From contig JAFQFI010000008.1 in assembly GCA_017398655.1 (NCBI GenBank), positions 1-60,472 on the forward strand: a DNA stretch of 60,472 nucleotides, read 5' to 3'. The number at the start of each line of letters is the position of its first letter. Position 1 is the first letter of the stretch. Positions 8,708 to 31,415 of this stretch are shown piece after piece. A model generated the notes under the pieces. It did not search any database, was not told the origin of the DNA, and was given only the letters and a program-made list of their open reading frames with translations. A program made the position numbers and the translations under genes. This DNA is from Clostridia bacterium (GTDB taxonomy: Bacteria; Bacillota; Clostridia; Christensenellales; UBA1242).

Positions 8708-9736
8708 ATGGATATTGTAAAAAACAAATGTAAAAATTGTGGTGGCGAATTAATTTATGATGCAGAAAGCCAAGAATTAAAATGTATACAATGTGATAGT
8801 ATTGTAGATATTCCAGAACAAAATACAACTATACAAAAAAAACAATACCATAAAGATAGTACAATTCAACTTAGTGAAACAGAATATACACAATATACTT
8901 GTGGTACTTGTGGAAGAAGACATATTGCACCTAAAAATCAAGATATTGTTAACTGCCCAACTTGTGGAGATAGTAATTTAGAAAAAAACATAACTGTTGA
9001 GTATCTTCCTGACGGAATTATTCCTTTTAAATTAAATCAAGAAAAAGCCCTATTGTGTTTTAAAGATTGGCTTAAGAAAAGAAAATTTGCACCAAACAAC
9101 CTTAAAAAACTTGCAAAAACTCAATCTTTAAAAGGTATTTACTTACCTATTTATGATTATGATTTTGATACATCTACAACTTATTCTGGCGTAGGTATTA
9201 ACGAATATAAAGATAGTGACGGAAAAAGACACACTTCAAGACACCCTTTTAGAGGCAATAGAAATGATTTCTTTGAAGATTATGTAGAATCTGCAAATAC
9301 AGAAATCAATTCTCCAGATTTAAGAGATATGGCAAACTATAATTACAAAAATATTTATGTTTATAGACCAGAATTTTTATATGGTTGGATTGGCTCTAAT
9401 ATAAACATTTCACTTCACGATAGTTGTGTACGAGCAAGAAACGCAGTTGCAAATAAAATTTCAAGCGATATTAAAAATAGTATGCATTATGATAGAATTG
9501 AAAACTTTGTTTGCAACACTACTTTCAATGCTATTAAATACAGTTATTTATACATACCTGTTTGGATTAATCACTATAAATATAAAGATAAAAATTATAA
9601 CTGCTATATAAATGGTATAACAGGTAAAGTAAGTGGCAAAGCACCAAAATCTTTCTGGAAAATATTCTTTACTACAATTGCAGTTATCGCTGTTATTGGT
9701 GCCATTGTATTTCTTGCTTATAAATACTCTGCTTAA
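8708..9736 (+). CDS. zinc-ribbon protein with C-terminal TM anchor (YdjG-like), paralogue 1
   Basis: ATG at 8708 with GAGG SD; the ORF-track start at 8696 is a TTG. Has CKNCGG...CIQCD and CGTCG...CPTCG ribbons and a C-terminal TM helix. Collinear with the next gene. Confidence 0.65.
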   Translation: MDIVKNKCKNCGGELIYDAESQELKCIQCDSIVDIPEQNTTIQKKQYHKDSTIQLSETEYTQYTCGTCGRRHIAPKNQDIVNCPTCGDSNLEKNITVEYLPDGIIPFKLNQEKALLCFKDWLKKRKFAPNNLKKLAKTQSLKGIYLPIYDYDFDTSTTYSGVGINEYKDSDGKRHTSRHPFRGNRNDFFEDYVESANTEINSPDLRDMANYNYKNIYVYRPEFLYGWIGSNINISLHDSCVRARNAVANKISSDIKNSMHYDRIENFVCNTTFNAIKYSYLYIPVWINHYKYKDKNYNCYINGITGKVSGKAPKSFWKIFFTTIAVIAVIGAIVFLAYKYSA

Positions 9737-9843
9737 AACAAAATAATAAAAGAGAAAATTTATATTGATTTCTCTTTTTTATTAGGATATTTCTTTGTTT
9801 TAATGTAAAATTTAATTGAATAAATTATTTTATGGAGTTTTAT

Positions 9844-10857
9844 ATGACTATTGATAATAAATGTAAAAACTGTGGCGGAGAATTAATTTATGATGTATCT
9901 TCTGGAGAATTAAAATGTATGCAATGTGATAGCATTGTAGATATTCCGGAACAAAATGCTAATGCAACTAAAGTTGATTACACAGAAACATCTACTTTAA
10001 AAACCAGCACCGAAGAATATACACAATATTCTTGTTCTACCTGTGGTAGAAAACACATAACACCTGTACATCAAGAACTTGTAAATTGCCCAAGCTGTGG
10101 CGATTGTAATTTAGAAAAAAATGTAAGCGTAAGTTATATCCCTGATGGAATTATTCCTTTTAAGTTAGATAAAGAAAAAGCAATGCAAAGTTTTTCACAA
10201 TGGTTAAGAAAAAGATTTTGGGCACCAAGCAACTTAAAAAAACTTGCCAAAACCGAATCTTTAAAAGGTACATACTTTCCTATTTACAATTATGATTTTA
10301 ATTGTTTTTCAAAATACTCTGGTGTTGGGGTTAAAAGTCGTAGAGGTTTAGACGGAAAAACTTATACTACACGACATAAATTTAAAGGCGACAGAAATGA
10401 TAACTTTATTAACTATGTAGATAGTGCAAATACTACAATTCCTTCTGGTCTATTAAGAGAAATGTCAAACTTTGATTACACCCAATGTTATATCTACAGA
10501 ACAGAATTTTTATATGGTTGGATTGGACTTGATAATAATATAGATATCCATAATAGTTTTGTAAAAGTAAAACAATCTTCTAAACAAGAAATTGAAAAGA
10601 GAATTAAGCAAGAATCTAAATATGATAGTGTTGAAAATTTGATATGTGATACCGAATATACAAATATAAAATACAATTACTTATATGTTCCTGTTTGGGT
10701 TAACTATTATAACTATAAAGGCAAAACTTTCAATTGCTTTATAAATGGTATAACCGGCAAAGTAAGTGGAGATGCTCCAAAATCATTTTGGAAAAGATTT
10801 TTTGCAATTCTTGGTATTATTGCTGTTGGTGTATTATTATATTTCCTTACAAAATAA
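9844..10857 (+). CDS. zinc-ribbon protein with C-terminal TM anchor (YdjG-like), paralogue 2
   Basis: ATG at 9844 preceded by GGAG. Same Cys pattern and same C-terminal block (FNC(Y/F)INGITGKVSG.APKSFWK) as 8708-9736. Confidence 0.65.
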   Translation: MTIDNKCKNCGGELIYDVSSGELKCMQCDSIVDIPEQNANATKVDYTETSTLKTSTEEYTQYSCSTCGRKHITPVHQELVNCPSCGDCNLEKNVSVSYIPDGIIPFKLDKEKAMQSFSQWLRKRFWAPSNLKKLAKTESLKGTYFPIYNYDFNCFSKYSGVGVKSRRGLDGKTYTTRHKFKGDRNDNFINYVDSANTTIPSGLLREMSNFDYTQCYIYRTEFLYGWIGLDNNIDIHNSFVKVKQSSKQEIEKRIKQESKYDSVENLICDTEYTNIKYNYLYVPVWVNYYNYKGKTFNCFINGITGKVSGDAPKSFWKRFFAILGIIAVGVLLYFLTK

Positions 10858-15405: not shown

Positions 15406-16755
15406 TTATAGTTCTAAATCTTCTATTTTTTCAATCAAAACATCTCTATTCCACAGTTCGACTTTATTAACTTTAGCCAATTTTATTGCTGACGGAGTAA
15501 AATAATTATTTGTAACAACCATACACTTGTCAGCTTTATAGTATTTCATACCAGCAACAGCTTCCATTATTGCATGATTTCCAACTTTGTTATTATAACA
15601 TTTTGCTTGAATTGCGATTTTCAAATCATTTTTCTCAGCTATCACATCTATTCCTTGGTCATTACTTGCTTTGGTAATTTTCGTTTGATAACCCATATTT
15701 TTAAATAAATCAGATACGCAACTTTCAAACTCTTTACCAGACATTACATCTATATCAACAATAGAAACTGAATCTTTCTCTTTTTCTTCTTTTAACAAAT
15801 CGTTTAAATATTTTTCTGCATGTATTTGATTTTCGATTAAATCTAATTTTTCTTTATAAATTTCACTTGCTATATCCATATTTTCATTTTTATAAATTTC
15901 TTTAGAAAATAAAATAAAAGTAATTTCTTCAATTAACAAATTTTCTCTTCTTAATTTTTTTATTATATTTTTTTCATTTTCTTCATTTATTAAAAATTCA
16001 TATTTTTTACAAAAATTGTTTATATAATTATTTTTAATTTCATTATAAAATCTTTCATTTAAAAGTAAGAAAAAGGCATCTTCTGTATTTTTATCTCCTT
16101 CAATAACACCTTGTGTTACTAAGGCATCATAAAATTGACGCAATTCCCTACATTCAAATCCACCCTTATCAAATTGATTAGCACTAAAATGTTGTTTTTT
16201 TAAAATAAATCGAGACTTAATATCAAAAGATAAATTTATATCTTTTTCTGCTATAGTTACTATTTCCCAATATTCTAAAAATCGATTAAAAGTTTGTAAT
16301 GGAGGAATTTGAATATCTTCCTCTTCATTATTTTCATGTTTAGTTAATTCCTTAAATTTCTCTAACTCTTCTTTTAAAATCAATGGCTTGTAGTTATTTC
16401 CAAAATTATTAATCTTAACACTTGGCATTGCTATACTATCAACATTCTTGTATAAAAAAATATCTAAATTTTCTCTTTTAGAAAAAAATTTTGCTAAATA
16501 TTGATTTAATTTATCATTTTCACACAAATTAACATACTCTTCTAAAATATCCTTGAATGTGGATATATTTTTAATTAATTCTTCATTTTCAATCTTTAAT
16601 CCTTCTTTATTTAATTCTGGAGAATTAAATTTATCTATATCTTTTTTTTTCTTCTCATTTTTTAATCCCACTACAACATATATAATAGCGATTATAACCA
16701 AAGACACCAAAAAGATTACTGACCCAATTCCTGAAGCTCCCAATAAATTAACCAT
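15406..16755 (-). CDS. membrane-anchored protein with C-terminal Mrr-cat (PD-(D/E)xK) restriction-endonuclease domain
   Basis: 449 aa. N-terminal TM helix, a long K/E/N-rich middle region, and a C-terminal GKEFE...GIDVIAEK...IAIQAKCY block typical of the Mrr_cat fold. Confidence 0.7.
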   Translation of the reverse strand: MVNLLGASGIGSVIFLVSLVIIAIIYVVVGLKNEKKKKDIDKFNSPELNKEGLKIENEELIKNISTFKDILEEYVNLCENDKLNQYLAKFFSKRENLDIFLYKNVDSIAMPSVKINNFGNNYKPLILKEELEKFKELTKHENNEEEDIQIPPLQTFNRFLEYWEIVTIAEKDINLSFDIKSRFILKKQHFSANQFDKGGFECRELRQFYDALVTQGVIEGDKNTEDAFFLLLNERFYNEIKNNYINNFCKKYEFLINEENEKNIIKKLRRENLLIEEITFILFSKEIYKNENMDIASEIYKEKLDLIENQIHAEKYLNDLLKEEKEKDSVSIVDIDVMSGKEFESCVSDLFKNMGYQTKITKASNDQGIDVIAEKNDLKIAIQAKCYNNKVGNHAIMEAVAGMKYYKADKCMVVTNNYFTPSAIKLAKVNKVELWNRDVLIEKIEDLEL

Positions 16756-16890
16756 AAAAGTAAAACCTCTTTAATAAAAAGATAACATAGAATTAGATTT
16801 TTGTCATTTGATAGAATACTATTTTACTTTTGTAAATCAAAATATTGAAAAAATAGTTTCTATAAAACAATAAATAATTATACAAATAAT

Positions 16891-17964
16891 TTATTTTTTC
16901 TCTAAACCTTCTAATATTCTATGACACCTATCAAGTTGTTCTTTTACATATTTTGTTATTAAATTCGTAAACTTTTTTATTTTTGCAAAATAATTAGGAT
17001 ATGCTTTTTGCAAAGAAGCTATTGACTTTGCAGACACAAGAACAACATCTGTATTAATATCTTTATTTAATTCCAATTTTGCATAAGTTTTTATGGCTTT
17101 TTTTGTTGACTTTTCATCTTCATCAAAATATTTAATTTCCAAAGAAGGATTCATAGTTTTTAATTGAAGTAAATAGTACCCCGATTTATTATAATTTTTT
17201 TTACTATCAAATATTATTTTAACAGTAGCAAAAGTATATAATTTCTTAGTTAAACCATATTTTTTGTTTAAATTGAAAAACTCTCCAATTGTTTCTAAAT
17301 GTTTTTTTATGTCATCTATGGTCTTTATTTTTTTACACTCTTCTTCTTCAAATATCAATGAAGATAATCTAAAAAAATCAAGCCAAATTTTTTCACCTTG
17401 ATTAAATTTCAATCCGTTATTTGTGAACATACCTACAGATTCAACAGCTGTAGCCCATAAATGCTGCAGTCTTGTTCTTAGTTGAAGTTCTACAGAGATT
17501 TTGTCGTAGTTATTGTCTTTTATAAAATCATATATAAGGTGAATTCCTCTATATCCAGTGTCTTTATTCGGATTTTTTATATAATCTTTTTCTTTATTCA
17601 ATAAAAAATCTTCACTAATATTTAATATTGAGTCTCTAAAAGAATAAACTTCTTCTAAATTTGAAAAGATTACTCTACATCCTCCAAGATCTTGCATACT
17701 GCTTAATCTCATATTTGGATAACGCACCAGTTTATTTACTATGGTGTCTAACCTTTTTAATCTTTGTGCAAAAACAACTCCTTTACGAGTCCCTATAGCT
17801 CTTTTCAATTCTTTTGCCAATTTAATCATTGGATGAGCATGAACAGCTCTCCAGCGTTCCACAATTTTTAAATGTTCGTTGTTTTTTCTATCTAAAGAAT
17901 TCTTTGCTATTTCTTTTCCAATAATATCTATTTGATTTTTACTGTAAATAATATTTCTATCCAT
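16891..17964 (-). CDS. RelA/SpoT-domain nucleotide pyrophosphokinase, long single-gene form (toxSAS/CapRel-like)
   Basis: 357 aa. Synthetase motifs GGCRVIF, YRGIHLIY and ELQLRTRLQHLWA, no HD hydrolase domain, and a ~170-aa C-terminal extension of unknown fold. Confidence 0.7.
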   Translation of the reverse strand: MDRNIIYSKNQIDIIGKEIAKNSLDRKNNEHLKIVERWRAVHAHPMIKLAKELKRAIGTRKGVVFAQRLKRLDTIVNKLVRYPNMRLSSMQDLGGCRVIFSNLEEVYSFRDSILNISEDFLLNKEKDYIKNPNKDTGYRGIHLIYDFIKDNNYDKISVELQLRTRLQHLWATAVESVGMFTNNGLKFNQGEKIWLDFFRLSSLIFEEEECKKIKTIDDIKKHLETIGEFFNLNKKYGLTKKLYTFATVKIIFDSKKNYNKSGYYLLQLKTMNPSLEIKYFDEDEKSTKKAIKTYAKLELNKDINTDVVLVSAKSIASLQKAYPNYFAKIKKFTNLITKYVKEQLDRCHRILEGLEKK

Positions 17965-18028: not shown

Positions 18029-18077
18029 TGGTGGGCCACCGGGGACTCGAACCCCGGACCCACTGATTAAGAGTCAG
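18029..18077 (-). repeat. attL: displaced 3' portion of tRNA-Lys (49-bp direct repeat)
   Basis: Base-for-base identical to 32489-32537 (tggtgggccaccggggactcgaaccccggacccactgattaagagtcag). Confidence 0.9.
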
Positions 18078-18112
18078 AGAATAGTCCTTTATTTAAGCCA
18101 CTTATAGCGTTT

Positions 18113-18134
18113 AGTACCCAAATAAGTACCCAAA
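18113..18134 (+). repeat. tandem AGTACCCAAA arm-type sites (left arm)
   Basis: AGTACCCAAA occurs twice at a 12-bp period. The same pair occurs at 32384-32405. Confidence 0.6.
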
Positions 18135-18148
18135 AAAAGTCTTGCAGT

Positions 18149-18931
18149 TTATTTAAAAACCACAAGACCATTTTGTTGTACATGATATTGATTCTTCGAA
18201 TATATAGCTTTAATAAAGTCTTTTATATCAATACCTTTAAGGTGCCCTTCTTTATTTATTGTCACATTACAATTCTTTACATGAGCTCTCGACCAAGCCT
18301 TGCCTAAATTTATTGCATTTTCTTCAGAAATAATATCTTTTAGTAAATAAAAAACAGAATAACAATCATAAGACTTAACATTGTTCGGCATATTTAAAAT
18401 ATATTGCCTCGCGGATGAATCATGTGAAAGTAACGCAAAAATATCAGCGTCACCAATTCTATTTGCAATTGATATATTTAAAATTGTCATGATTTCCCCC
18501 ATGTTGTTTCCACTAGGTATATTTCTAACAATTTTATTCAACTGTATAATAAACATTTTTAACTTTGTTTCGTTCATACAAAGATTTTCTAATTGGCTAA
18601 AATAATTTTTATAAAAAGTATCACTTTTAGAAATTTCAATTGATATTTTACGAATCTCATCCAAAATAATATGTTTAATAGTTATATCATCAAAAAAATG
18701 CTTTAGGCCTTTTACAATTTCAAAATTGTCAACTATGCTTATTTTTTCTTCTTGATGATATTTATAAATTATTTTTAAAATATTAGGATTCTTTATTTCA
18801 TCAAGAACCTTTGAAACCATAATAAATTTATACGGAAGTTTTATAATTTCATCGAAAAATGTGGAAGAATTATTTTTTGCTTTTATTGTTTTATTTATAA
18901 AATCCGTATCTAAATATGCAACTTTACTCAA
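18149..18931 (-). CDS. PIN-like domain protein (putative nuclease effector)
   Basis: 260 aa with a TTG start overlapping the upstream stop by 8 nt. YLDTDFI, VLDEI and SHDSSA are spaced like PIN acidic residues. Tentative call. Confidence 0.4.
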   Translation of the reverse strand: MSKVAYLDTDFINKTIKAKNNSSTFFDEIIKLPYKFIMVSKVLDEIKNPNILKIIYKYHQEEKISIVDNFEIVKGLKHFFDDITIKHIILDEIRKISIEISKSDTFYKNYFSQLENLCMNETKLKMFIIQLNKIVRNIPSGNNMGEIMTILNISIANRIGDADIFALLSHDSSARQYILNMPNNVKSYDCYSVFYLLKDIISEENAINLGKAWSRAHVKNCNVTINKEGHLKGIDIKDFIKAIYSKNQYHVQQNGLVVFK

Positions 18932-19757
18932 CTGAATCTTTTTTAGTAATTTTTTTTAAAATTTCTTCCACTTTTAATTTTGTACTATTTGCTTTACTAT
19001 TACTGATAAACTGAAATTCCTCATTCTCACTTATGAGATAATCTAGATCATCCAAATCATAATAATTACTGCACTTTTGTTCCCATCTTTCAAAACGAAG
19101 TTTTATTATTACTTCATCTAATAATTTTATTGTCTCTTTGCCTATTCCTAAAAAAATTTTCAATTCTTTTTCACTGATTTTTTCTAATTCATATGCTCTT
19201 ATAACTGCAGTTTTATAAGGAACCATAAATGAATCCATTAATTTTTCAATATAAAAAACTTTTTCTTTTGATGTTTTTGGTTCTCTTTTACAAACAAGTT
19301 CAACCCTCTCTTTAGGCATTAGAAAACAAGAACTAAAAGCATTTGCCTTTTTATCGTTTATATTGCACTCAACTTCATTTGGATTATCCTTAAGTACATC
19401 TATTAAATTGTCATCCGTAGAATCTTCATGATTTTCTAGGAAATCAATAAAATGATAGAACTCATGAGCTAATGCTACATTTTGTTTGTTCATTGGAAAT
19501 TCTGAATTTATAACAATGAAAAATATTCCAGATATTTTATAAAACATACCCCATACTTGATCATCGTTAAAAGGAAGATATAATATTTTTAAACAAACAT
19601 TCTTTCTTTCTGCATATTCCTTTATAAATAATTTAAGATTATAAGCAATAGGTGTTAATTCTGAAATATTATAAAGAATCATGTTAGCTTTTTTTTCAAT
19701 ATCTCTAAATAAACTTTTATCAGAATAAAACAAACAATCTTTGATTTTAATAGACAT
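18924..19757 (-). CDS. ImmA/IrrE-family (M78, COG2856) zinc metallopeptidase
   Basis: 277 aa with the HExxH motif ALAHEFYHF. Its ATG directly abuts the stop of the upstream XRE gene, and the SD AAGGAGG lies inside that gene. Confidence 0.7.
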   Translation of the reverse strand: MSIKIKDCLFYSDKSLFRDIEKKANMILYNISELTPIAYNLKLFIKEYAERKNVCLKILYLPFNDDQVWGMFYKISGIFFIVINSEFPMNKQNVALAHEFYHFIDFLENHEDSTDDNLIDVLKDNPNEVECNINDKKANAFSSCFLMPKERVELVCKREPKTSKEKVFYIEKLMDSFMVPYKTAVIRAYELEKISEKELKIFLGIGKETIKLLDEVIIKLRFERWEQKCSNYYDLDDLDYLISENEEFQFISNSKANSTKLKVEEILKKITKKDSVE

Positions 19758-20108
19758 TTATGCCTCCTTATTATCATTTAAGTATTGTTGTTCAACAATA
19801 ATATCTGATAACTCAAAAATCAATTCAAAAGTTTTATTTGTCTCTTTTTTTGTAATCTCTCCCATAAGTTGAGCAGAAACTTTTTCTTTTAAAACTTTTC
19901 TTTGTCTTGTCAAATCTTCTATTTTACATGAAAAAAAATTAGCAATCTTTGCAAATTCGCTTGCTAATAAATTTCTCTTTCCTGCTAAAATTTTATTTAC
20001 TGTTTGTCTTGGCAAATCTAAAAACCTTCCTAGATCTGATTGTTTCTTCTTTTGTTTATTAAGTAAATCTAAAATATTTTGAGCAACCATTAAATCAAAA
20101 TTTTCCAT
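19758..20108 (-). CDS. XRE-family helix-turn-helix regulator
   Basis: 116 aa. QSDLGRFLDLPRQTVNKILAGKR is an HTH_3-type motif. Strong SD (AAAGGAGGG). Confidence 0.8.
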   Translation of the reverse strand: MENFDLMVAQNILDLLNKQKKKQSDLGRFLDLPRQTVNKILAGKRNLLASEFAKIANFFSCKIEDLTRQRKVLKEKVSAQLMGEITKKETNKTFELIFELSDIIVEQQYLNDNKEA

Positions 20109-20131
20109 AATTACTCACCCTCCTTTGGTAT

Positions 20132-20159
20132 TTTATATTAATTATTATGTCCTTGTCAA
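20132..20159 (-). promoter_or_regulatory. putative promoter of the XRE-ImmA-PIN operon
   Basis: TTGACA, 16-nt spacer, TATAAA on the minus strand just upstream of the SD. Confidence 0.4.
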
Positions 20160-20281
20160 TATTAAATATGCAAAATGTAACTAAATTAGTGACAAATGTA
20201 CATAAAAATTTCTTATTTAGAAGACATTTTTTAGTAAAAAAATTTTAATATAATCTAATAATTACTTCAATCTTTAGTGAC

Positions 20282-20320
20282 AAAAAAAATAAATCCAAAG
20301 ATTTTTTGGATTTATTTTTA
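20282..20320. terminator. bidirectional terminator downstream of the kinase gene
   Basis: Hairpin AATAAATCCAAA-N6-TTTGGATTTATT with A- and T-runs on either side. Confidence 0.65.
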
Positions 20321-20476
20321 AATATTTTCTTTGATTAAATCTCTATTTAATCTAAATATTAGATAACAAAATCAATTATAAAATTACATCAATTATAGAA
20401 AGAATTAAAAATCAGATAAAGTCTCTTATTAAGTCACTTATAAAGTTCAGTACAAAAATTTTAAAATTGTGTTTCA

Positions 20477-21610
20477 TTAAAAAGGCAAATCTTCATCTAT
20501 TTTAACTTTTACTTTAGACAATTTTGCTTTTATACTTTTTATTACAATTTCTTGAAAATGCCTATCTTTTCTTTCAAACCAATTTAAAAAATCTTTAACC
20601 AATGCTGTTTCTATTCTTATGCCATTTGAATATGCATAATTATTTTTCACAAAAATCGATATTAGACTGGAGTTTTCTATTAAAACATTCTCCAAACAAT
20701 TTTCTTCTAATAAATTCTCTAAACCGTTTATTATTTCATCAACATTATCGTTAATCTTTTGTTCTGAAGAATGGTGATCTAAAGCCAAAATCATGCTAGA
20801 TGAAAAATTTAAATAAATTTCTTTGTCTTTTTCTGTTATATCTAATCTTGTTAACTCTTTATGGTTTATTTTATTTAAAATATCTTCAAAAGAAGCAAAC
20901 CTTTTACTAGGATCAGTTTCCAACATCTTATTTAAAATTGTTTTATACTCAAAATTGTTTAAACTATTTTTTTTCAAAAGTCTACTAAACAATTCTGCAA
21001 GACAAAACATATCTGTTTTTGACGTGTATTTCCCTACATTTATTTCAGACGGTATTTTTTCCATTCCTCTTCTATCTATAACTTTATTTAAGCTATCTTT
21101 AGACATTGATGATTCAGAGAAATCTTTTCCCAAACCAAAATCTATTATTTTTACAACGCCATTTTTGTCAATCATAATATTATTTGGTCTAATATCTCTA
21201 TGAATTATGTTGTTTTTTTCTAAACAATTAAAGGCGTTAATTAATTGTATAAAAATTGAATTCGCATCAATTTCAATATCTTTTTTTGATAGATACTTGT
21301 CAATAGTTTCTCCGTCAATGTATTCCATTAATATAAACCCAGCATTGTATTCATCATATAAATAATAATTATAAATTCTCACTATGTTTGGATTATTAAG
21401 TTTGTACATTATTTTTATTTCTTTTTTAAACATATCATAAAAATATTTTATATTTACACCTTCTTGAGGAAGATATTTTTTACATACAAAAAGTTCTTCT
21501 AGAGAATTATCCCTTAGTAAAACTGTTTGCCCACAAGAACCTTTACCTAATTTTGCATTAACCATTGTATAACTTTTTGTCTTTATAAAATTAATTATTT
21601 CGTTTTCCAT
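20477..21610 (-). CDS. Hanks-type Ser/Thr protein kinase with unknown C-terminal domain
   Basis: 377 aa. Has LGKGSCGQ (G-loop), VCKKY, HRDIRPNN and IIDFGLGK motifs, followed by ~125 aa of unknown function ending in DEDLPF. Confidence 0.8.
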   Translation of the reverse strand: MENEIINFIKTKSYTMVNAKLGKGSCGQTVLLRDNSLEELFVCKKYLPQEGVNIKYFYDMFKKEIKIMYKLNNPNIVRIYNYYLYDEYNAGFILMEYIDGETIDKYLSKKDIEIDANSIFIQLINAFNCLEKNNIIHRDIRPNNIMIDKNGVVKIIDFGLGKDFSESSMSKDSLNKVIDRRGMEKIPSEINVGKYTSKTDMFCLAELFSRLLKKNSLNNFEYKTILNKMLETDPSKRFASFEDILNKINHKELTRLDITEKDKEIYLNFSSSMILALDHHSSEQKINDNVDEIINGLENLLEENCLENVLIENSSLISIFVKNNYAYSNGIRIETALVKDFLNWFERKDRHFQEIVIKSIKAKLSKVKVKIDEDLPF

Positions 21611-21640
21611 AACTTCTCCTTAATTTCACCATATCACAAT

Positions 21641-21680
21641 AAAAAAAGAGACTCAAGTATTTTTTTAAGTCTCTTTTTTT
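21641..21680. terminator. bidirectional terminator between the replication-like gene and the kinase gene
   Basis: Hairpin AAGAGACT...AGTCTCTT flanked by A- and T-runs. Confidence 0.6.
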
Positions 21681-22512
21681 ACAAATCTATTTCATCTAAA
21701 TTATCAAAAAGCGATTCTAACTCTTCAGTTGTATAGTTCCTGGAGATAAAAGCTTTGCGTTCTTCTTTTTGGTTTGGTTGTTTATAATCATCATAGTATC
21801 CAGTTATAATTTTATGGTAGTTGTCCATTAAGAAATCAAAATCAATTCTTGGATTGTTCTGAAGAAATAAACTTTTATCCAAAGCTGCAAGAAGAGAATC
21901 ACATTTAAAACCTACAGGAAGTAGTGTTAATCTATCCACTTTAAATCTTGGATATTTTTCGAATAAAGGAACAAGTCTCTCATCTATACTACAATTTATA
22001 TTACTACTATAATTATTATCTTTTTGAGTGTCTATTTCTATATTATATATACTACTAATATTATTATTTTTAGTATTTATATTATAATATGTTAACCAAC
22101 TTGGACATTTTTGACCAAGTTCACTTGCCAACTTGGACATTTTTGACCAAGTTAGAAGTAAAAAATATTTTTTCACTCCAACTGTTTCACTTTGCTTTTT
22201 AGATAGAACGTGGAGAGATTTTTTTGTAAGACAGATATTTATACCTGCAAAAAGATTTTGTTTCTTAAGATAACCGGCATTTACAAGCTTTGAAATTAAA
22301 CGTTTTAATTGTTTAACTTCAATGTTTAAAATTGGAAGTGCTTCAAGAACTTCTCTATAATTAAACGTTTTAAAAAGAGAAACTTCTTGGCCAGAAACAA
22401 ACTCTTCAGATATTATTGACTTGGAGAAATAAAAAAGCAGCAATAGTTCGTTTGCTGACAATTTATCTTTTAAAATTATTCTTTGTTGATAATCAAAAAC
22501 GTAATCCCACAT
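21679..22512 (-). CDS. winged-helix replication-initiator/replisome-organiser-like protein
   Basis: 277 aa. N-terminal wHTH-like segment, N/S/I-rich linker, acidic C-terminus, and internal DNA iterons. The functional call is an inference. Confidence 0.35.
   Translation of the reverse strand: MWDYVFDYQQRIILKDKLSANELLLLFYFSKSIISEEFVSGQEVSLFKTFNYREVLEALPILNIEVKQLKRLISKLVNAGYLKKQNLFAGINICLTKKSLHVLSKKQSETVGVKKYFLLLTWSKMSKLASELGQKCPSWLTYYNINTKNNNISSIYNIEIDTQKDNNYSSNINCSIDERLVPLFEKYPRFKVDRLTLLPVGFKCDSLLAALDKSLFLQNNPRIDFDFLMDNYHKIITGYYDDYKQPNQKEERKAFISRNYTTEELESLFDNLDEIDL
22096..22153. repeat. two identical 26-bp iterons, each with an internal dyad (candidate origin)
   Basis: ccaacttggacatttttgaccaagtt occurs at 22096-22121 and 22128-22153. 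Each copy contains the dyad AACTTGG-N10-CCAAGTT. The 32-bp period is not a multiple of 3. Confidence 0.7.
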
Positions 22513-22571
22513 AAAAAACCCTCTAATTTTTCGCGTAGTTAAATTAGGGTATTGATTTTAATACCCTTTTT

Positions 22572-22789
22572 TTATAAAAAAGTCGATTTTAAAGCATTTT
22601 CGAGTGCTACGCACACAAGAGCTGAACAGCGTTTTTCTAATCGGATTTTCGATAATATATTTGCTCGTCCATACTCTTGCATACATATCGCACTACAGCA
22701 ACAGGTAGCCCCATTTTGACCCACAGGGGCTAAAGCCGATCCTGTGGGTAAATAAATCAAAATGGGGCATTAACAAAGTTGCTGTAGTG
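22572..22789 (-). other. GC-rich structured non-coding block (candidate ncRNA, packaging signal or single-strand origin)
   Basis: Nested perfect stems of 12, 12 and 8 bp span 22691-22789. More small hairpins lie at 22572-22690. The composition is clearly more GC-rich than the surroundings. Confidence 0.55.
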
Positions 22790-22946
22790 TATCCCTCGTT
22801 ACCAGTTTTTCTAATTCTGTTATCTTTCCCAAGGTTGCTTTCAATATTACCTGTTTGTTGATTTTGTCAGATTTGTAAATTCCTACTTTTACCAATCTGT
22901 CAACTTCTTTCCTGCAGACCTTTCTTTCTTGAGATATTTCAGCCAT
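22770..22946 (-). CDS. small hypothetical protein (58 aa)
   Basis: ATG with AGGAGA SD. Translates to MAEISQERKVCRKEVDRLVKVG... It is below the ORF-track length cutoff, and its 3' end runs into the 5' arm of the hairpin. Confidence 0.45.
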   Translation of the reverse strand: MAEISQERKVCRKEVDRLVKVGIYKSDKINKQVILKATLGKITELEKLVTRDTLQQLC

Positions 22947-22958
22947 ATTTTTCTCCTT

Positions 22959-23261
22959 TTATTTTAAAATTAAAGTGAAAATAATAAAAATAGCAGTTAT
23001 TGCTAAATATAAAAAAATAATGAGTTTTTGTAACATTACTAATAATATATTTTTAGTTCTTTTTGCTTTAGTTAACATAATAAGAGAAGTAATAAAGCCA
23101 ACTACTAAAGTAAATAAAGCGTATGGCAGTAAAAATATTGACCCTAAAACGTCACCAGTTTTAAATGGTAAAATATTAGTAATTGGCAAAATAATTCTGA
23201 CTGAAAACGCCAAGCAAACAACTTCTATTAAAAAACCAATTAAAGATAATATTTTTCTCAT
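22959..23261 (-). CDS. small multi-pass membrane protein
   Basis: 100 aa from the ATG at 23261, with an AAGGAGA SD. About 3-4 hydrophobic helices. Confidence 0.6.
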   Translation of the reverse strand: MRKILSLIGFLIEVVCLAFSVRIILPITNILPFKTGDVLGSIFLLPYALFTLVVGFITSLIMLTKAKRTKNILLVMLQKLIIFLYLAITAIFIIFTLILK

Positions 23262-23293
23262 CAATTCTCCTTAAATAATTTTATTTACAAATT

Positions 23294-24754
23294 TTAAGCC
23301 AATTTTTTGACCTTGTAAGCCCTGTTTATAATTTCTTGGTTAAATAGTTGTTTTATTTCATCTTCGCTTAAAACGGGTGTTTTAAAGGTCTCTACGCTGG
23401 CAGATTGATATTGACAAGCATATAAATTTCTAAAAGTTCGGTCATCATAAAAACAATTTAAGTTTGGTGGTAAAACAAAAGATTTTACACGAGAGCCAAT
23501 TTGACCTTTATTTCCAACTTCAAGGTTTCCATAATCTTCATACTTGAATTTTCTAAAACCAACTGAATTAACATAAGTTCTTAAATCGGATATAATTTTT
23601 ACTTTAGTGTCTGTAGGTTCATAATTTTGAATAAACTCTTCAAGCCAAGAAACAATCCAATCTAATAGATAAGGTTTTAAAACGTGTTTTTGTTCTATCA
23701 TTTTTTTATTTTCTGCTGTAACACGTCTTGCAGAAATTAAAGTAGCATTTCCGTCTTGTTCTGTAGAAACTAATCTAAAATCCTTATACTGTCTTGTAAA
23801 TCTAAACATGTGGTCTATCAATTGGATTTTATTATTAGAAAGTTCTGGTGGAAGCATTGAACCAATTTCGTCCAAGAAAGCAACGCCTTTATATAAAAGT
23901 TTACTTTTTTGTAGTAGGTGATCTGCTGTAAATTTACAAGCAGGTTTTCCGTCTTTAAAAATTGGAATGTTACTCCAGAAACAAGGAATGCAATCGTTTT
24001 CGCTATAAAACTCATAAGCTTCAACAACTTCTATTACATGTTTTATTTTGACTTCATCTCCGGTGTACTTCCTTTGATATTCGACAATTGGAAAACCTTT
24101 TTTATCAAGGCCGATAACTTTATGTTCCAAATGAGTTCCAGAATAAATCCTTATTATTTTATTTTCCAACTTCCAATATTCAAATTGAAGATTTTTCCAT
24201 AATTTATCTGCAATTTCAATTGAGTCGTATATACCTGAAGACGACTTTCCTGCTCCAGGTTCTCCCATTCTTAAAACAACGTATTTTGACATACTTAAGT
24301 TTTCAGAATGTGATATTACAGATAGTTCATAAAATTCGTTAGAAACAAAATATATAAGGGTGAAAAAAGTCGCAACTGCTAAAGGAATAAAAAGTATTAG
24401 TTTTTTAGCTGTAAATCCAAAAGATGAAACATAAAGAATATCTAAAAGCAAAACTATAATAAATTCAATCAAATAATGAAAACGTGCTAATTTTTGAAGA
24501 AAAGATTTTTTTACTTTAAAAACCAAAACTTTATCTATTAAGTTTTCATCGTCTTCCGGTTCTGGTTCATAAAATTTTGTTTGAGCTTCTTCTTTCTTTT
24601 TAAAATACTTTGCATAATCTCTCCAGTGCTGGAGGGCAAATAAATCTTCTTTTAAATGTTTATCTGCCAACTTCCAACGCTGTTTTGTTTTTTGATTACC
24701 TTTGTATTTTGAATATGTTAATAATTTAGGTTCTGAATAAGTTAATAACTCCAC
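23294..24754 (-). CDS. membrane-anchored P-loop NTPase, Zot-like
   Basis: Probable GTG start at 24754 after GAGG. Two TM helices are followed by Walker A GEPGAGKSS, Walker B AFLDEIG and FRFTRQYKDFRLVSTEQD, resembling the Zot/pI family pattern. Confidence 0.55.
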   Translation of the reverse strand: MELLTYSEPKLLTYSKYKGNQKTKQRWKLADKHLKEDLFALQHWRDYAKYFKKKEEAQTKFYEPEPEDDENLIDKVLVFKVKKSFLQKLARFHYLIEFIIVLLLDILYVSSFGFTAKKLILFIPLAVATFFTLIYFVSNEFYELSVISHSENLSMSKYVVLRMGEPGAGKSSSGIYDSIEIADKLWKNLQFEYWKLENKIIRIYSGTHLEHKVIGLDKKGFPIVEYQRKYTGDEVKIKHVIEVVEAYEFYSENDCIPCFWSNIPIFKDGKPACKFTADHLLQKSKLLYKGVAFLDEIGSMLPPELSNNKIQLIDHMFRFTRQYKDFRLVSTEQDGNATLISARRVTAENKKMIEQKHVLKPYLLDWIVSWLEEFIQNYEPTDTKVKIISDLRTYVNSVGFRKFKYEDYGNLEVGNKGQIGSRVKSFVLPPNLNCFYDDRTFRNLYACQYQSASVETFKTPVLSEDEIKQLFNQEIINRAYKVKKLA

Positions 24755-24755
24755 A

Positions 24756-27062
24756 TTAAACCTCAAATTCAATAGAATCAATTGTTAATGATGTCACTTT
24801 TCCATCAGTAAAACCTACAGGATTTTCTTCACCAGAAGCGTAAACTTTATTTATTTTTTCATACGATTTTACATAGATTTCTAAAGAATTAGTATCTAAA
24901 TCAATTTTTGCAGAAAAATATAGTGGGAAATAATAATAAGTAGAATCATTATACTGTTCGTTAAAAACTCCCATATAAGCAAAACTTTTAGCTAATAAAG
25001 GAACTGTAACTAATTCATCTAATTTATAAAGACCACTTTCTTCATCAAAAGTTAAATTTAAATCATAATCAACTGATTTATTTACACTATAACTATTTAT
25101 TTTTGTATAAGAAGAACCAAAAGTTTTCACATAATTTACCGTTTCAAGATAATAAGAACTAATATTTATAGCAATATTTTTAAAATCAGTTATAGGTTGC
25201 TCCAAAGAAGATAAATCAACTGTGAAAGTTGTATATGTGGAATAATTACCAGTTCCACTAAAAGCAGTTCCATATGTTAAAGTTTTTGATGCAATTTTAT
25301 AAATTGGATAAAAATCAGTATCTGAAGTTATTGCTATTGTTGAAATATCTATTACTGTTTCTTGATCTGTTGACCAACCAACAAAAACATATCCTGTTCT
25401 ATCACTTAAGATAGGTGTAACAGAGTATTTGTCTGTTTCAATAAGTTGAGTTTCTAAAATTACTAATTCTTCATTTTCATCATAGCCATAGAAATTAACA
25501 ACGTTTAATCTTTCAAATTCAGCAATATATGTTGTATGGCTTGTAATTGCTTCAGATAACACGTCTGTTAATATTCCATTCTTTAACCAGCCATTAAATT
25601 TATATCCGTCCTTTATTGGCTCTGCAGGAAGTTCTGGATAATGATTTAATTCAATTATTTGAGAATTATGTATATCTTCACTATCCTCATCAAGTTTGAA
25701 TATAACGTCAAAACTATAAGTTATATTTGCAACTAAAACAGTATCTGCAACAATTGGTGTTGTTGTTATATCAAATACAACATCATTTGAGTACCAACCA
25801 TTAAATTTCCTGTAAACACTACTTTCAACTTCAATTTCTGAAGCGTACTCATTATTTCTTACAATTTGAGTGTCTTGAGTAGTATCTTCATAAATAAAAG
25901 TTACTGTGTGAAGTTTTGTAAATACAGCTACAAAAATTGTATCTTGTGTTATTTGAATTTCTGTAGGATTTACTTTATCAACACCATTCAAAGACCAATA
26001 GTCAAACTCATATCCGTCTTTTACTGGCTCTGCAGGAAGTTCCGGATAATAATTAAGTTCTATAATTTGAGAACTATGTAAATCTTCATCTACTTTAAAC
26101 TTAACATCATATCTGGTTGTTATATCAGCATAAAATGTTGTATTTGCAGAAAGTGGATAAGAACTTAATTCAACTTCTTGTTTTTCTCCGTCAACTTCAA
26201 CGTACCAATAATTGAAAGTTACATATTCAGTTGATTCTGGATTAACAAGTGCAGGTGTAGTTCCTTTATTAATTACTTGAATGTTATAAACGCTATTATT
26301 AAAATAGAACGTTGCAACAACTTGATTTTCGTTTTCTAAATTTTTGATATATTGTTCATAATATTCAATTGATTTTTTTAAGCTTTCAACTTCGTTTTTA
26401 AGTGAAGTTAAAGCTGCAGAATTATTTTCTGAAGCAGTTGTCATTTCAGAAATTTGTTTATTTAAAGTTTCAATTTGTAAATTCATATTTACAATTGTTT
26501 GAGTGTTTAAATCATTGGTTGATTGTAAAGAAGCATTTACTGTTTGAAGATTTGAAATTTGTTTCTGAAGTAGCTCTATTTCTTCAGATTTATCTTCATC
26601 ACTTGCTTTAAGTTTTGTAACTTCATTTTTTAAATTTGAAATAGTTACTTTGTTTTCTGCAATTATTTTTTCATTTTCAGCATTAATTGTTTCTAAAGAA
26701 AGTACTCTATTTTGATAAGTATTTCTTTCACTTGTTAACGTTGAAATTTTAGTTTGATATTCCCAATTATTGTCTGTTAATACTTTAATTTGAGATTGAG
26801 AATCTGCTATTTCTTTTTCATAAGTTGCTACAAGTTTTTTATAGTAACTTTCATTATTCTTGGCGTCAGAATAACCGTCATTGTAAGCATCAGAAGTTAT
26901 TTCATCTACTTGTGTTTGAGTATAAATAGAACTTCCTTTTATAAGAGCAAATAACCCCTCTTTATTATTAAAAGTCCACCAAACACCAAAAACTAACGCT
27001 CCCACAATCAGTACACAAACCAAGGAAAAAGCTATGCTTCTTGCGTTCTTATTTTTTTCCAT
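24756..27062 (-). CDS. N-terminally anchored surface protein: coiled coil plus repeated P.P.K.GY.F.GW (Listeria-Bacteroides-repeat-like) domains
   Basis: ATG at 27062 after GAGGAGG. TM helix, ~200 aa of heptad-like sequence, then repeats such as YPELPAEPVKDGYEFDYW and YPELPAEPIKDGYKFNGW. Confidence 0.6.
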   Translation of the reverse strand: MEKNKNARSIAFSLVCVLIVGALVFGVWWTFNNKEGLFALIKGSSIYTQTQVDEITSDAYNDGYSDAKNNESYYKKLVATYEKEIADSQSQIKVLTDNNWEYQTKISTLTSERNTYQNRVLSLETINAENEKIIAENKVTISNLKNEVTKLKASDEDKSEEIELLQKQISNLQTVNASLQSTNDLNTQTIVNMNLQIETLNKQISEMTTASENNSAALTSLKNEVESLKKSIEYYEQYIKNLENENQVVATFYFNNSVYNIQVINKGTTPALVNPESTEYVTFNYWYVEVDGEKQEVELSSYPLSANTTFYADITTRYDVKFKVDEDLHSSQIIELNYYPELPAEPVKDGYEFDYWSLNGVDKVNPTEIQITQDTIFVAVFTKLHTVTFIYEDTTQDTQIVRNNEYASEIEVESSVYRKFNGWYSNDVVFDITTTPIVADTVLVANITYSFDVIFKLDEDSEDIHNSQIIELNHYPELPAEPIKDGYKFNGWLKNGILTDVLSEAITSHTTYIAEFERLNVVNFYGYDENEELVILETQLIETDKYSVTPILSDRTGYVFVGWSTDQETVIDISTIAITSDTDFYPIYKIASKTLTYGTAFSGTGNYSTYTTFTVDLSSLEQPITDFKNIAINISSYYLETVNYVKTFGSSYTKINSYSVNKSVDYDLNLTFDEESGLYKLDELVTVPLLAKSFAYMGVFNEQYNDSTYYYFPLYFSAKIDLDTNSLEIYVKSYEKINKVYASGEENPVGFTDGKVTSLTIDSIEFEV

Positions 27063-29037
27063 AAACGTTCCTCCTCTTGTTACCTTTTTTGTAAAAACCA
27101 AATATCCAAAGAAGAAGTTGAATTGGTAAAGAAACAATCCAAACTACGCCTTTAAATAAAAGCTTTAAAATTGGTTTTAAAAATGGAATTGCTAATAAGC
27201 AAATAAGAATTACTATTGCAATAAGTATCCATGTGAAAGTATTTAAACTTTTATCTTCAAGAGTTACATCTACATCAGAGATAATATCAAAAGGACTTGA
27301 AACAACAGGAATTGTATAAAACATAGCGTCATTTGTGAGAGTTAATTGAATAATATCAAAATCTAAAAAAACATTCTCTTGTGCAGAACTCATTGCATAA
27401 TCAGTTGCCGGAAAGTAAAAATCTCCTAAACGTTTTTCATAAGAAACTTGCAAATTTGAATAAGAAAGATAATCTGTTTCTGCAAATCTAAATAAGAAAA
27501 CTGTTTCTTCATTTTCAGTTGCATTATTAAAATATTCTCTAAAATCATCTACATCATTTTTTGCAATAAGTAAATTTTCAGAAACTTTTGAATCACTTCC
27601 GATAACTTCATCTGAAGTAACGCTTTTGATTGGAGCAATTGTTTTATCTTCAATAGTATTAACAGTAAAGAATGTTTCCCACCATGAAGCACTTTCATTT
27701 AATTTTGTAATCTCGATATTATCTTCCACTGTAATATCAATTTTGTTATATCCCATTTTTCTATCTGAAGTTGCTGTAGATGTATTGTAGTATTTAGCAT
27801 TGAACTCTTCTTCTGATAAAAATAAATCTGCAGATATTTCTCTACCATTACAGTCAATAATTCCATTTTTAAAAATGCTATAGTTATAAATATAATTACT
27901 TAAATCTTCACTCTTTAACGTGTAATCGCCAACTATATCTTCAGCTAAAAAAAGATAATTTATTTCATTTAAAGTGTTAAGAGCATAATCAGAATCTGCA
28001 TTGTAAATAAATGAATCCTCTAACCATTCTTTATATGGCGTATAAAGAGGTGATCCAACGGTAGTCCAAAAACCTCCCGGTCTTAAAACAGCACAATCTG
28101 GAACGTCTCCGGAGTTGTGAGCAATATTTACTCCAATATAATCTTTTAAACTATTATAAACTTTGCTTGATGATGTTATAAAAATATCTTTTGTTGCATA
28201 TTCCCAAAATTCTGCCTTAACAGAATAAATACTTCCATATTTTTCAATAATTGAATTTGGCACACTAAAGTAAACACTGTTTATTTGAGAACCTTTAAAA
28301 CGTTCTTCCATTCCGTCAGAGTCAAATCTGTAATAAGAGTGCTTAACGTCTAACGTTAGAGTTTCAATTGCATTAGCTTCACATTTTAAAGTAGATTCTT
28401 CACTATCTCCACCAAAACCTTTAGCATATCCAGTAAAAGAATATGAAGTTGAAACGTTATACTCTGTAGCATTTTCTCTATCAGCAACGTTTAATTCAAT
28501 ACCAGAGATATGATAAGTTCTTTTTAAAGAATTAAGTTTTGTTAAAAAGATTGAAGTATCAGATATTTTGAATTTATAAAAAAGTTCAGCATAATCTCCT
28601 TGAGAACGGTCGCAATATTCCAGGTTAAATTTTTCATAATTTATTGGATTATTTTCTTCATCAAACTCTACAGCAATTTGAACTTTATTTGTTTTTATAG
28701 TATCAATTTCAATACCTTGAGGATTGTATATGTAAAGATATAAATTGTAATTATCTTGCATATCCAGTTTGTATGAATAGCAATATTCAACAAAGTTAAT
28801 TACCACCATTTTATCTTCAGATTGGTCAAACGGATATTTTAAAATATCAAAGTTTTCACAAGACAATAAATCTTCCATTACTCTTGTTTGGTCTAAATTT
28901 TTAACTTCATCTGAAGAAGTTGAAGCATAAACGTTTACAGAACTTATTGTTGGTATTAAAAAAGAAATGGCAAAAATAATTGCCATTAACAATAAAAAAA
29001 TTTTATTCTTCTTTTCTTTCTTTTTCATCATAAGCAT
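27049..29037 (-). CDS. large secreted protein with signal peptide and C-terminal TM anchor (spike/adsorption-like)
   Basis: 662 aa. N-terminal signal-like segment ending ...VYAS, and a C-terminal hydrophobic region with a basic tail. Confidence 0.55.
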   Translation of the reverse strand: MLMMKKKEKKNKIFLLLMAIIFAISFLIPTISSVNVYASTSSDEVKNLDQTRVMEDLLSCENFDILKYPFDQSEDKMVVINFVEYCYSYKLDMQDNYNLYLYIYNPQGIEIDTIKTNKVQIAVEFDEENNPINYEKFNLEYCDRSQGDYAELFYKFKISDTSIFLTKLNSLKRTYHISGIELNVADRENATEYNVSTSYSFTGYAKGFGGDSEESTLKCEANAIETLTLDVKHSYYRFDSDGMEERFKGSQINSVYFSVPNSIIEKYGSIYSVKAEFWEYATKDIFITSSSKVYNSLKDYIGVNIAHNSGDVPDCAVLRPGGFWTTVGSPLYTPYKEWLEDSFIYNADSDYALNTLNEINYLFLAEDIVGDYTLKSEDLSNYIYNYSIFKNGIIDCNGREISADLFLSEEEFNAKYYNTSTATSDRKMGYNKIDITVEDNIEITKLNESASWWETFFTVNTIEDKTIAPIKSVTSDEVIGSDSKVSENLLIAKNDVDDFREYFNNATENEETVFLFRFAETDYLSYSNLQVSYEKRLGDFYFPATDYAMSSAQENVFLDFDIIQLTLTNDAMFYTIPVVSSPFDIISDVDVTLEDKSLNTFTWILIAIVILICLLAIPFLKPILKLLFKGVVWIVSLPIQLLLWIFGFYKKGNKRRNVYGKK

Positions 29038-29131
29038 TTGCTCCTAATAAAATGAATCTTGCTAATTCATTTGAATTTGGCAATCTACCATATTTTTTAT
29101 AAAATTCATTTCTAAAATCTTGCTTTGACAT
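29003..29131 (-). CDS. possible 42-aa protein
   Basis: ATG 8 nt after GGAG (ggagaaaacaaa atg). Translates to MSKQDFRNEFYKKYGRLPNSNELARF... Overlaps the start of the 662-aa gene. Confidence 0.3.
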   Translation of the reverse strand: MSKQDFRNEFYKKYGRLPNSNELARFILLGANAYDEKERKEE

Positions 29132-29145
29132 TTTGTTTTCTCCTT

Positions 29146-29776: not shown

Positions 29777-29790
29777 TATTAACCTACCCC

Positions 29791-30078: not shown

Positions 30079-30109
30079 AAATTAACCTCCTTTTTCATAA
30101 GTTTCAAAT

Positions 30110-30361: not shown

Positions 30362-30386
30362 AACTTCCTCCAAATTTTTTTTATTT

Positions 30387-30545: not shown

Positions 30546-30557
30546 GGGGGCAATACA

Positions 30558-30905: not shown

Positions 30906-30908
30906 AAT

Positions 30909-31220: not shown

Positions 31221-31415
31221 ATCAACAAACAACAGAATATATAAAAACAAGTTGCCTTAATTAAGCAACTTGCTGAAGATTTAGAAATATATATACTCGG
31301 TGCTGAAGAAAGCACCAAACCTGTACTAATTACTAACAATGTTGTACCTTTTAAAAAACTGAACACTGTAAGTGGCGTTTCAAACTCTGACTCATTAAAA
31401 GGAGTTGAAGAAGAA

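Follow-up and report, generated by a model that had tools for sequence, protein, structure and literature searches.

Does an operon that combines an XRE-family repressor, an M78-type metallopeptidase and a third protein without a family assignment act as the induction switch of the element that carries it, or is it a toxin or defence module that travels on its own? This question is raised by three genes in a 60,472-bp stretch of DNA (the window; contig JAFQFI010000008.1) from an uncultured Clostridia bacterium with a genome of 27% G+C, located at one end of a 14.5-kb element integrated in a tRNA-Lys gene. An original prediction, made from the sequence alone, had described the trio as a coupled operon with a PIN-like nuclease as its third product and had proposed either role. 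We found that the trio is kept as a unit in unrelated genomic contexts, and that it is most likely a portable cassette rather than the induction switch of the element.

The three genes form one coupled operon

The genes are arranged on the minus strand in the order XRE, M78 peptidase and 260-amino-acid (aa) protein, with the junction sequences AAGGAGGCATAAATG and TTGAGTAA. The ATG start codon of the peptidase gene abuts the TAA stop codon of the XRE gene (...AAGGAGGCA TAA ATG...), and the Shine-Dalgarno sequence of the peptidase is located within the XRE gene. At the second junction (...TCAG TTG AGT AAA...), the TTG start codon of the third gene overlaps the stop codon of the peptidase gene. 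The tight packing and coupling that had been claimed for the three genes could therefore be seen directly, in the limits of the open reading frames, the abutting codons, the internal Shine-Dalgarno sequence and the overlapping start and stop. The claim of a single operon also stood, as a promoter-like site and a terminator-like hairpin bracket the unit. The gene upstream of the trio, which encodes a kinase, is closed by a perfect hairpin, so the trio needs its own promoter and constitutes its own transcription unit. The better-matching promoter-like site has its -10 hexamer only ~6 nt from the Shine-Dalgarno sequence of the XRE gene. This makes the true start site uncertain, and it may belong to the weaker alternative site.

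The trio recurs in unrelated contexts

We analyzed the DNA around relatives of the third protein, from metagenome, isolate-derived and viral contigs, using hidden Markov models of the window-type XRE protein and peptidase to find orthologues beside the third gene. The complete trio was found in 12 out of 12 independent contexts with upstream sequence; at two further loci the contig ends inside the peptidase gene. The orthologues were full-length (120-189 bits for XRE and 230-410 bits for the peptidase), neighbouring genes of the trio overlapped by up to 17 nt or stood up to 33 nt apart, and the third gene was never lost from the trio at the loci examined. As the same order recurs at every related locus with upstream sequence, the three-gene arrangement is not a product of chance.

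The surroundings of the trio were found to vary widely. In an element of the same family as that of the window (L001), a 180-aa gene and a 57-aa gene stand where the window has the kinase gene, which makes this position look like a variable cargo slot beside a conserved trio. At other loci the trio adjoins a type III restriction-modification system (L002) or a CAP12-type TIR gene (L006), or it comes directly before phage genes, the tape-measure gene in L013 and terS/terL in L011. In L014, tail-type genes without a Pfam match were seen by eye to flank the other side of the trio. In L010 and L012 it lies between a gene for an ArdC-type polyvalent protein and genes for a relaxase and large serine recombinases. 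Its neighbours in L017, a Lachnospiraceae contig of 444 kb, are metabolic genes, and in L020 and L021 it stands directly before a tyrosine integrase gene in a polysaccharide locus. The survey of co-occurrence that had been suggested as a check thus showed the trio kept as a unit with unrelated flanks.

On one viral contig (L009), the trio is bracketed by two paralogous genes of ~335 aa (5214-6209 and 8968-9993), which have a weak, below-cut-off match to a PD-(D/E)XK transposase family (PDDEXK_2, E 6e-5). The bracket hints at one way in which the cassette may be moved.

The repressor and a candidate operator that travels with the cassette

The XRE protein has a helix-turn-helix (HTH) domain at residues 14-66, followed by a C-terminal region of ~50 residues. 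Its residues 7-102 align with positions 7-102 of the 113-position PDC-M69A profile of PADLOC (a component of a candidate system considered below). In an alignment of 10 orthologues we found an invariant [L/F]-M-G motif (L81-M82-G83 in the window protein) ~15 residues past the HTH.

The promoter regions of distant cassettes have a 17-bp dyad, GTNWCY-N5-RGWNAC, in common. Two matches occur in the window, compared with 0.22 expected from shuffled sequences, and both (the candidate operators O1 and O2) are located upstream of the XRE gene. O1 is conserved in L001. In L001, L010, L011 and L012 the dyad has a single match per locus, always upstream of the XRE gene. This restriction of the dyad to the region upstream of XRE, across loci, is good evidence that the repressor acts on its own promoter through this candidate operator, which would travel with the cassette. 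Versions of the dyad with one mismatch were seen by eye in L005, L008, L009 and L014.

A dedicated M78 peptidase and a putative cleavage site

The match of the second protein to Peptidase_M78 scores 40.1 bits against a Pfam cut-off of 22. The catalytic core (residues 56-188) contains the motifs H98-E99-x-x-H102 (HEFYH) and D135-x-x-ANAF, and H98, E99, H102 and D135 are invariant across ten orthologues. The C-terminal ~90 residues are conserved among the orthologues and specific to this family. Beyond residue 188 no Pfam domain, no GAF-domain or cysteine-switch signal and no Cys invariant across the ten orthologues was found. Among PADLOC models, the peptidase matched PDC-M69B best (E 1e-28), far ahead of capP or Rosmer RmrA; the match to capP (E 1.8e-10) was confined to positions 26-155 of that 242-position profile. 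Among solved structures, the peptidase resembles only the catalytic cores of IrrE and CapP, in a weak profile match.

The cuts that characterised M78 proteases make in XRE proteins fall behind a hydrophobic residue, between F95 and M96 in ImmR, L106 and R107 in DdrO, and F82 and R83 in CapH. By analogy, the bond between L81 and M82 in the [L/F]-M-G motif, at a position comparable to these cuts, would most likely be the cleavage site in the cassette XRE.

The third protein is predicted to be PIN-like

For the third protein, Pfam, PADLOC, NCBIfam and PHROGs gave no match. HMMER, run exhaustively over 1.84 billion representatives, recovered only 41 relatives, all of ~255-283 aa, and a profile search of a 5.8-billion-cluster database recovered 91 clusters. 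Every name given to these relatives was "hypothetical", and the named ones came from Clostridiales or Lachnospiraceae metagenome-assembled genomes. No family member was found in GTDB representative genomes and no relative in JGI metagenome contigs searched with a profile of the family alignment. Deposited phage genomes and plasmids held no match to the window protein; a single faecal phage fragment, which is unannotated, was similar to a distant member of the family.

We aligned 35 sequences of the family, down to ~20% identity. D8, D10, F11, K14, E45, G145, S169 and D171 were invariant, and E146 (at least 90%), A174 and R175 were nearly so. The acidic motifs singled out in the original prediction (YLDTDFI, VLDEI and SHDSSA) are present, and their residues D8, D10, E45 and D171 belong to this invariant set; the third acidic residue, E146, had been missed.

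An AlphaFold2 model built on the 35-sequence alignment reached a predicted local distance difference test score (pLDDT) of 94.1 and a predicted template modelling score (pTM) of 0.90 (an alignment of only 3 sequences had given an unusable model, with a pLDDT of 54.8). PIN domains have the order beta1-alpha-alpha-beta2-alpha-alpha-beta3-alpha-beta4-alpha-beta5, and members of the superfamily have three to four conserved acidic residues and a Ser/Thr at the C-terminal ends of strands or the N-termini of helices. The order of elements in the model corresponds to the PIN three-layer alpha/beta/alpha arrangement with a five-stranded parallel sheet. The predicted PIN core (residues 1-68 and 141-216) is interrupted after beta-3 by a helical insertion (~70-140) and followed by a small beta-rich subdomain (~220-260). 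The large insertion that had been proposed from the sequence is thus present in the model as a ~70-residue helical segment with the catalytic positions on either side. D8 is predicted to follow beta-1, E45 to follow beta-2 and S169-x-D171 to follow beta-4; E146, in a GE motif, starts the helix before beta-4. The N-terminal LDTDF motif resembles the LDTN of VapC.

In a Foldseek search of the PDB, all matches with a probability above 0.5 were PIN-domain proteins. They comprised 15 or more entries at 0.5-0.97, including the HARP minimal RNase P (8ssf_A, 0.97), Nmd4, Nob1, Utp24, VapC20 and PAE0151, while Rossmann-like enzymes other than PIN proteins had a probability of 0.15 or less. No credible match was found among viral predicted structures. 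Profile searches of Pfam and the PDB with 24 cores from which the insertion had been deleted gave no PIN match, the PDB searches being empty or irrelevant, and PDB profile searches with the family alignments found no PIN relationship. Alignment of the family with Shigella VapC (a sequence identical to 3tnd_A) by hhalign gave probabilities of 0.9% and 0.3%. As the tests based on sequence alone all failed, we call the protein "predicted PIN-like" and do not place it in a named PIN family. The predicted fold and the acidic residues at PIN positions support the original PIN-like guess where the sequence methods did not, and we consider it probable, with fairly good confidence, that the protein is PIN-like.

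The carrier element and its surroundings

The element is delimited by an exact 49-nt direct repeat that corresponds to the 3' part of tRNA-Lys(CTT). One copy is in the intact tRNA gene, close to a tyrosine integrase gene, and the other is in a displaced fragment just past the third gene of the trio (Table 1). The claim that the cassette stands at the end of the element therefore held, with the integrase at the other end. Two tandem paralogous XRE genes, with a 103-nt stretch of 90% identity, adjoin the integrase gene and face a long array of genes on the minus strand, which includes several large proteins without a family assignment. The element also encodes a coiled-coil protein of 793 aa that contains Listeria-Bacteroides repeats, and Walker A/B-like motifs were seen by eye in a 495-aa protein. 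The trio had also been described as prophage cargo, and this was not borne out: no capsid, portal or terminase was recognisable among the proteins of the element, and a 662-aa protein had no match in deposited phages. Assignment of the carrier to a known phage type failed on the same grounds. What the data show is a 14.5-kb tRNA-Lys integrative element, and the term "prophage" is unproven.

The kinase gene directly upstream of the trio encodes a 377-aa Ser/Thr kinase that matches the PADLOC models PD-T4-6 (E 2.9e-32) and MADS mad6 (E 1e-36). Just outside the element, past the displaced tRNA fragment, two further genes appear defence-like. One encodes a 357-aa RelA/SpoT-domain protein (PADLOC PDC-S33, E 2.5e-101; phrog_4773, E 1.3e-77), and the other a protein of 449 aa that carries an Mrr_cat nuclease domain in its C-terminal part and seems to be hydrophobic at its N-terminus. 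The tRNA-Lys locus looks like a defence hotspot.

Two kinds of repeat were also seen in the element. A 25-nt repeat, TTTAGTACCCAAAT(A/T)AGTACCCAAA, itself a tandem of AGTACCCAAA, sits just inside each element end, in the interval that separates the att core from the first gene, and its copies may be arm-type binding sites of the integrase. A 26-nt palindromic unit, CCAACTTGGACATTTTTGACCAAGTT, occurs in two exact copies 32 nt apart within an open reading frame that has weak winged-helix matches. The pair could represent an iteron or an origin that lies within the gene of a replication initiator.

Table 1 Positions of the cassette genes, their signals and the surrounding features in the window
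Feature	Position	Strand	Details
XRE-family repressor gene	19758..20108	-	116 aa; HTH_3 E 4.5e-8, PADLOC PDC-M69A E 6.9e-13
M78/ImmA/IrrE-type zinc metallopeptidase gene	18924..19757	-	277 aa; Peptidase_M78 E 3.8e-10
Third gene, predicted PIN-like nuclease	18149..18931	-	260 aa; TTG start
Shine-Dalgarno sequence of XRE gene	20123-20118		GGAGGG
Promoter-like site TTGACA-18-TAAAAT	20130..20159	-	sigma-70-like; 11/12 matches; conserved in L001
Alternative weaker promoter TTGCAT-18-CATAAT	20173..20144	-	abuts O1; read by eye
Intrinsic-terminator-like hairpin	18138..18169	-	13-bp stem then T run; overlaps stop codon of third gene
Perfect hairpin (inverted repeat I3)	20285..20319		15-bp arms, 100% complementary, 5-nt loop; terminates upstream kinase gene
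Candidate operator O1	20177..20193		dyad GTCACT-AATTT-AGTTAC (minus strand); 17 nt upstream of -35 hexamer
Candidate operator O2	20421..20437		distal copy of 17-bp dyad; between kinase stop and kinase terminator hairpin
Integrative element	18029-32537		14.5 kb
Displaced 3' fragment of tRNA-Lys (att repeat)	18029..18077		49-nt repeat, first copy; element end, 72 nt past cassette
49-nt repeat, second copy	32489-32537		within tRNA-Lys(CTT)
tRNA-Lys(CTT)	32489-32564
Tyrosine integrase gene	31416-32375		between the 49-nt repeats
Tandem XRE genes	30558-30905, 30909-31220		adjoin integrase gene
Ser/Thr kinase gene	20477-21610	-	377 aa; upstream neighbour of trio
Defence-like genes outside element	15406-17964	-	RelA/SpoT-domain and Mrr_cat proteins
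25-nt repeat	18110-18134, 32381-32405		just inside element ends
Open reading frame	21679-22512		277 aa
26-nt palindromic unit, two copies	22096-22153		within 21679-22512

A proposed protease-gated cassette and the alternatives

On balance, and with modest confidence, we favor the reading that the trio is a self-contained mobile cassette gated by proteolysis, with an XRE repressor that regulates its own expression, an M78 peptidase dedicated to the system and, as effector, a PIN-like nuclease. In this model, XRE would bind as a dimer to the 17-bp dyad(s) of its promoter region, so that the operon is expressed only at a low basal level. The peptidase would be activated under stress or infection by a signal that is presumably sensed by its family-specific C-terminal region, and it would then cut XRE between the HTH and the C-terminal, probably dimerising, region, most likely at the [L/F]-M-G motif. 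Loss of the repressor would de-repress the operon and possibly also release the nuclease. The PIN-like enzyme could then accumulate and degrade RNA, a substrate we propose only because the nearest folds are RNases, leading to growth arrest or abortive infection that would protect the clonal population, the carrier element or both. The trio has defence-like neighbours in the window, namely the PD-T4-6-type kinase, the RelA/SpoT protein (PDC-S33) and the Mrr nuclease. A bolder version, which we hold tentatively and rate as somewhat less than probable, is that the cassette is a working abortive-infection system against phages. Its non-GAF M78 peptidase would sense a signal other than single-stranded DNA, for example a phage protein, and cleavage between [L/F] and M-G in XRE would unleash a new family of PIN-like RNases with a HARP-like insertion; the whole would be a 2-kb "moron" with its own 17-bp operator that hops among Clostridia phages, mobilisable elements and chromosomes.

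Several observations weigh against this model. On the 444-kb contig (L017), no defence or mobile genes were found near the trio. In L020 and L021 the order of trio and integrase matches immR-immA-int of ICEBs1. O1 is located upstream of the -35 hexamer and leaves the core promoter uncovered, so that steric repression in its simple form is not obvious; XRE at this candidate operator could repress, activate or loop DNA. With one promoter for three genes, the nuclease is made together with the repressor, and basal tolerance or a hidden check is needed. Concerning the effector, the third acidic position is Glu and not Asp, no convincing Pfam PIN match was obtained for the 35 full-length members, and the Foldseek statistics are weak (best E 0.044, none below 1e-3, TM-scores of 0.40-0.54). 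The third protein of the window does not itself match PDC-M69C, the third component of the PADLOC candidate, and neither do 31 of the 35 family members. A full-text literature search for "PDC-M69" found no paper naming or testing this candidate.

The reading of the trio as an ImmR/ImmA-type switch for lysogeny or excision, in which the peptidase cuts the repressor after DNA damage and the third gene is an accessory expressed in the lysogen, has the known role of XRE and M78 pairs in ICEBs1 and many Gram-positive prophages behind it. The arrangement in L020 (6797-10194) and L021 (380-3777) also speaks for it: there a 380-aa tyrosine integrase gene follows the trio and a small divergent 52-aa gene precedes it in a block inserted in a polysaccharide-biosynthesis locus; the block may represent a minimal island of the ICEBs1 kind, or else the cassette may have been captured beside an integrase. 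In L005-L007, moreover, the operon diverges from an operon containing a sigma factor. In the window, by contrast, the cassette does not occupy a regulatory junction of the ImmR/ImmA type; the ICEBs1-like order of L020 and L021 is the exception among the loci. A terminator separates the cassette from the rest of the long co-directional array whose 3' end it occupies, the integrase is 11 kb away, and no other part of the element contains the dyad. A separate XRE-XRE module, next to the integrase, faces the array. We considered these integrase-proximal XRE proteins as substrates of the peptidase and rejected them, as they are only ~20% identical to the cassette XRE and do not have the [L/F]-M-G motif. 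The trio also lies inside phage late-gene regions in L013/L014 and L011, there is no element at all in L017, and the third gene is never lost, all of which makes a switch of the carrier very unlikely. Between the two roles that had been left side by side, the unrelated contexts, the cassette's own operator and the separate XRE-XRE-integrase module favor a defence or toxin module.

What kind of module this would be is a closer question. In a three-component toxin-antitoxin module, as proposed by Makarova 2009 and Matelska 2017 for loci with HTH, COG2856 and PIN genes, XRE would neutralise a PIN-like toxin by binding, as in VapB-VapC, the peptidase would degrade the antitoxin, and the cassette would be selected for stabilising its carrier and not for phage defence. 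This differs from the protease-gated model mainly in the mode of neutralisation and in the selective benefit. The antitoxin-first order with overlapping genes is that of type II toxin-antitoxin operons, the trio is almost always on mobile elements, and neutralisation by binding would account for tolerance of a co-transcribed nuclease. We nevertheless regard it as unlikely, as no sign of binding between XRE and the nuclease was seen in the sequences, the effector is twice the size of VapC with extra domains, and one large chromosomal contig, with no mobile genes in view, retains the trio as well; with restriction-modification, TIR and kinase defence genes adjoining the trio, defence fits at least equally well. 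The third protein might also not be a toxic nuclease, its Rossmann-like scaffold serving a different enzymatic or regulatory task such as phosphatase activity or nucleotide processing with the DxD/SDD acids; the trio would then be a stress-inducible regulon and not a suicide module. The missing sequence-level tie to any PIN family, the weak Foldseek E-values and the co-transcription of the gene with its own repressor are consistent with such a role, and in our own reading the D8-x-D10 that follows strand 1 and the S-D-D that follows strand 4 recall motifs of HAD-type phosphotransferases. We rejected the HAD-phosphatase reading on the Foldseek ranking, in which HAD and other Rossmann-like enzymes fall far behind the PIN entries, and because the Lys of HAD motif III is absent, with an invariant Glu in its place. 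As LDT[D/N] followed by hydrophobic residues is the N-terminal signature of PIN domains, and as PADLOC puts relatives of the protein in a candidate derived from defence islands, a function other than that of a nuclease appears quite improbable.

Relation to known systems

The class to which the cassette belongs is less new than the original prediction had implied. Makarova, Wolf and Koonin (2009) found COG2856-Xre pairs strongly linked to PIN/RelE genes and proposed three-component toxin-antitoxin systems, and Matelska et al. (2017) described the PIN-like families COG2405, DUF4411, PIN_14, PIN_20 and PIN_26 as co-transcribed with HTH and DUF955 genes. These predicted systems have the same parts in one operon, often on phages or plasmids. 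Many of them fuse the HTH and the protease, which are separate genes here, and the effector of the window differs from their families by its ~70-residue helical insertion and its C-terminal subdomain. It matches neither DUF4411 nor DUF3368/COG2405 (E 0.12 only, for one family member). The candidate PDC-M69 of PADLOC-DB v2, itself a computational candidate only, corresponds to the same class, with the same three-part make-up (A, B and C): the XRE protein of the window matches its A component and the peptidase its B component. PDC-M69C is matched by 4 of the 35 members of the third-gene family (best E 4.3e-6), and the window protein is linked to these homologues by phmmer (E ~1e-50 to 1e-4); its own miss, and that of the 31 other members, indicates a divergent branch. 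The cassette is thus a divergent low-G+C member of a predicted and catalogued HTH-protease-PIN class. Its architecture would not surprise a specialist, and its PIN-like family is absent from Pfam. In literature searches we found no experimental test of an XRE-M78-PIN trio.

The best-studied functional analogue of the cassette is CapH/CapP (Lau et al. 2022; Calloji et al. 2026), likewise an HTH repressor with an M78 peptidase, in which cleavage by CapP turns on an immune effector. CapH (107 aa) is cut at a position comparable to L81-M82 in the window XRE. CapP has a C-terminal GAF domain, a groove that binds single-stranded DNA and often a cysteine switch, whereas the peptidase of the window aligns with it over the core only. 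The effectors studied with CapH/CapP are separate multi-gene systems such as CBASS, whereas here there is only one effector, encoded by the third gene of the operon itself. The same protein pair is found in ImmR/ImmA of ICEBs1 and IrrE/DdrO of Deinococcus, in which the M78 protease cleaves the C-terminal part of the XRE repressor and which control excision and transfer genes or a DNA-repair regulon. Unlike these, the pair in the window is locked to one effector gene and moves jointly with it among unrelated elements.

VapBC resembles the cassette in the predicted PIN fold, with D/E/E/D and Ser, and in the upstream overlapping gene for a DNA-binding partner. It differs in being a two-gene operon with a VapC of ~130 aa, which the C-terminus of the antitoxin binds and blocks, and a partner of the AbrB, ribbon-helix-helix or PhD type, whereas the cassette has an XRE protein, an additional protease and a 260-aa effector. 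HARP (PIN_5), the best structural match (TM-score 0.54 on target length), also has helices protruding from its PIN core, like the insertion of the third protein.

With separate parts, a candidate operator, a candidate cleavage site and clear putative catalytic residues that can be mutated, the cassette is a compact test case of ~2 kb for a 17-year-old prediction. Even if the proposed function is untrue, the cassette is still separated here from real element induction switches, which matters when prophages and integrative elements of gut Clostridia are annotated. If it is true, the "cleave the repressor" switch of ImmA, IrrE and CapP would be found packaged with a single nuclease as a portable immune or addiction unit, and a function would be given to at least 91 clusters that are named only "hypothetical" and are absent from Pfam.

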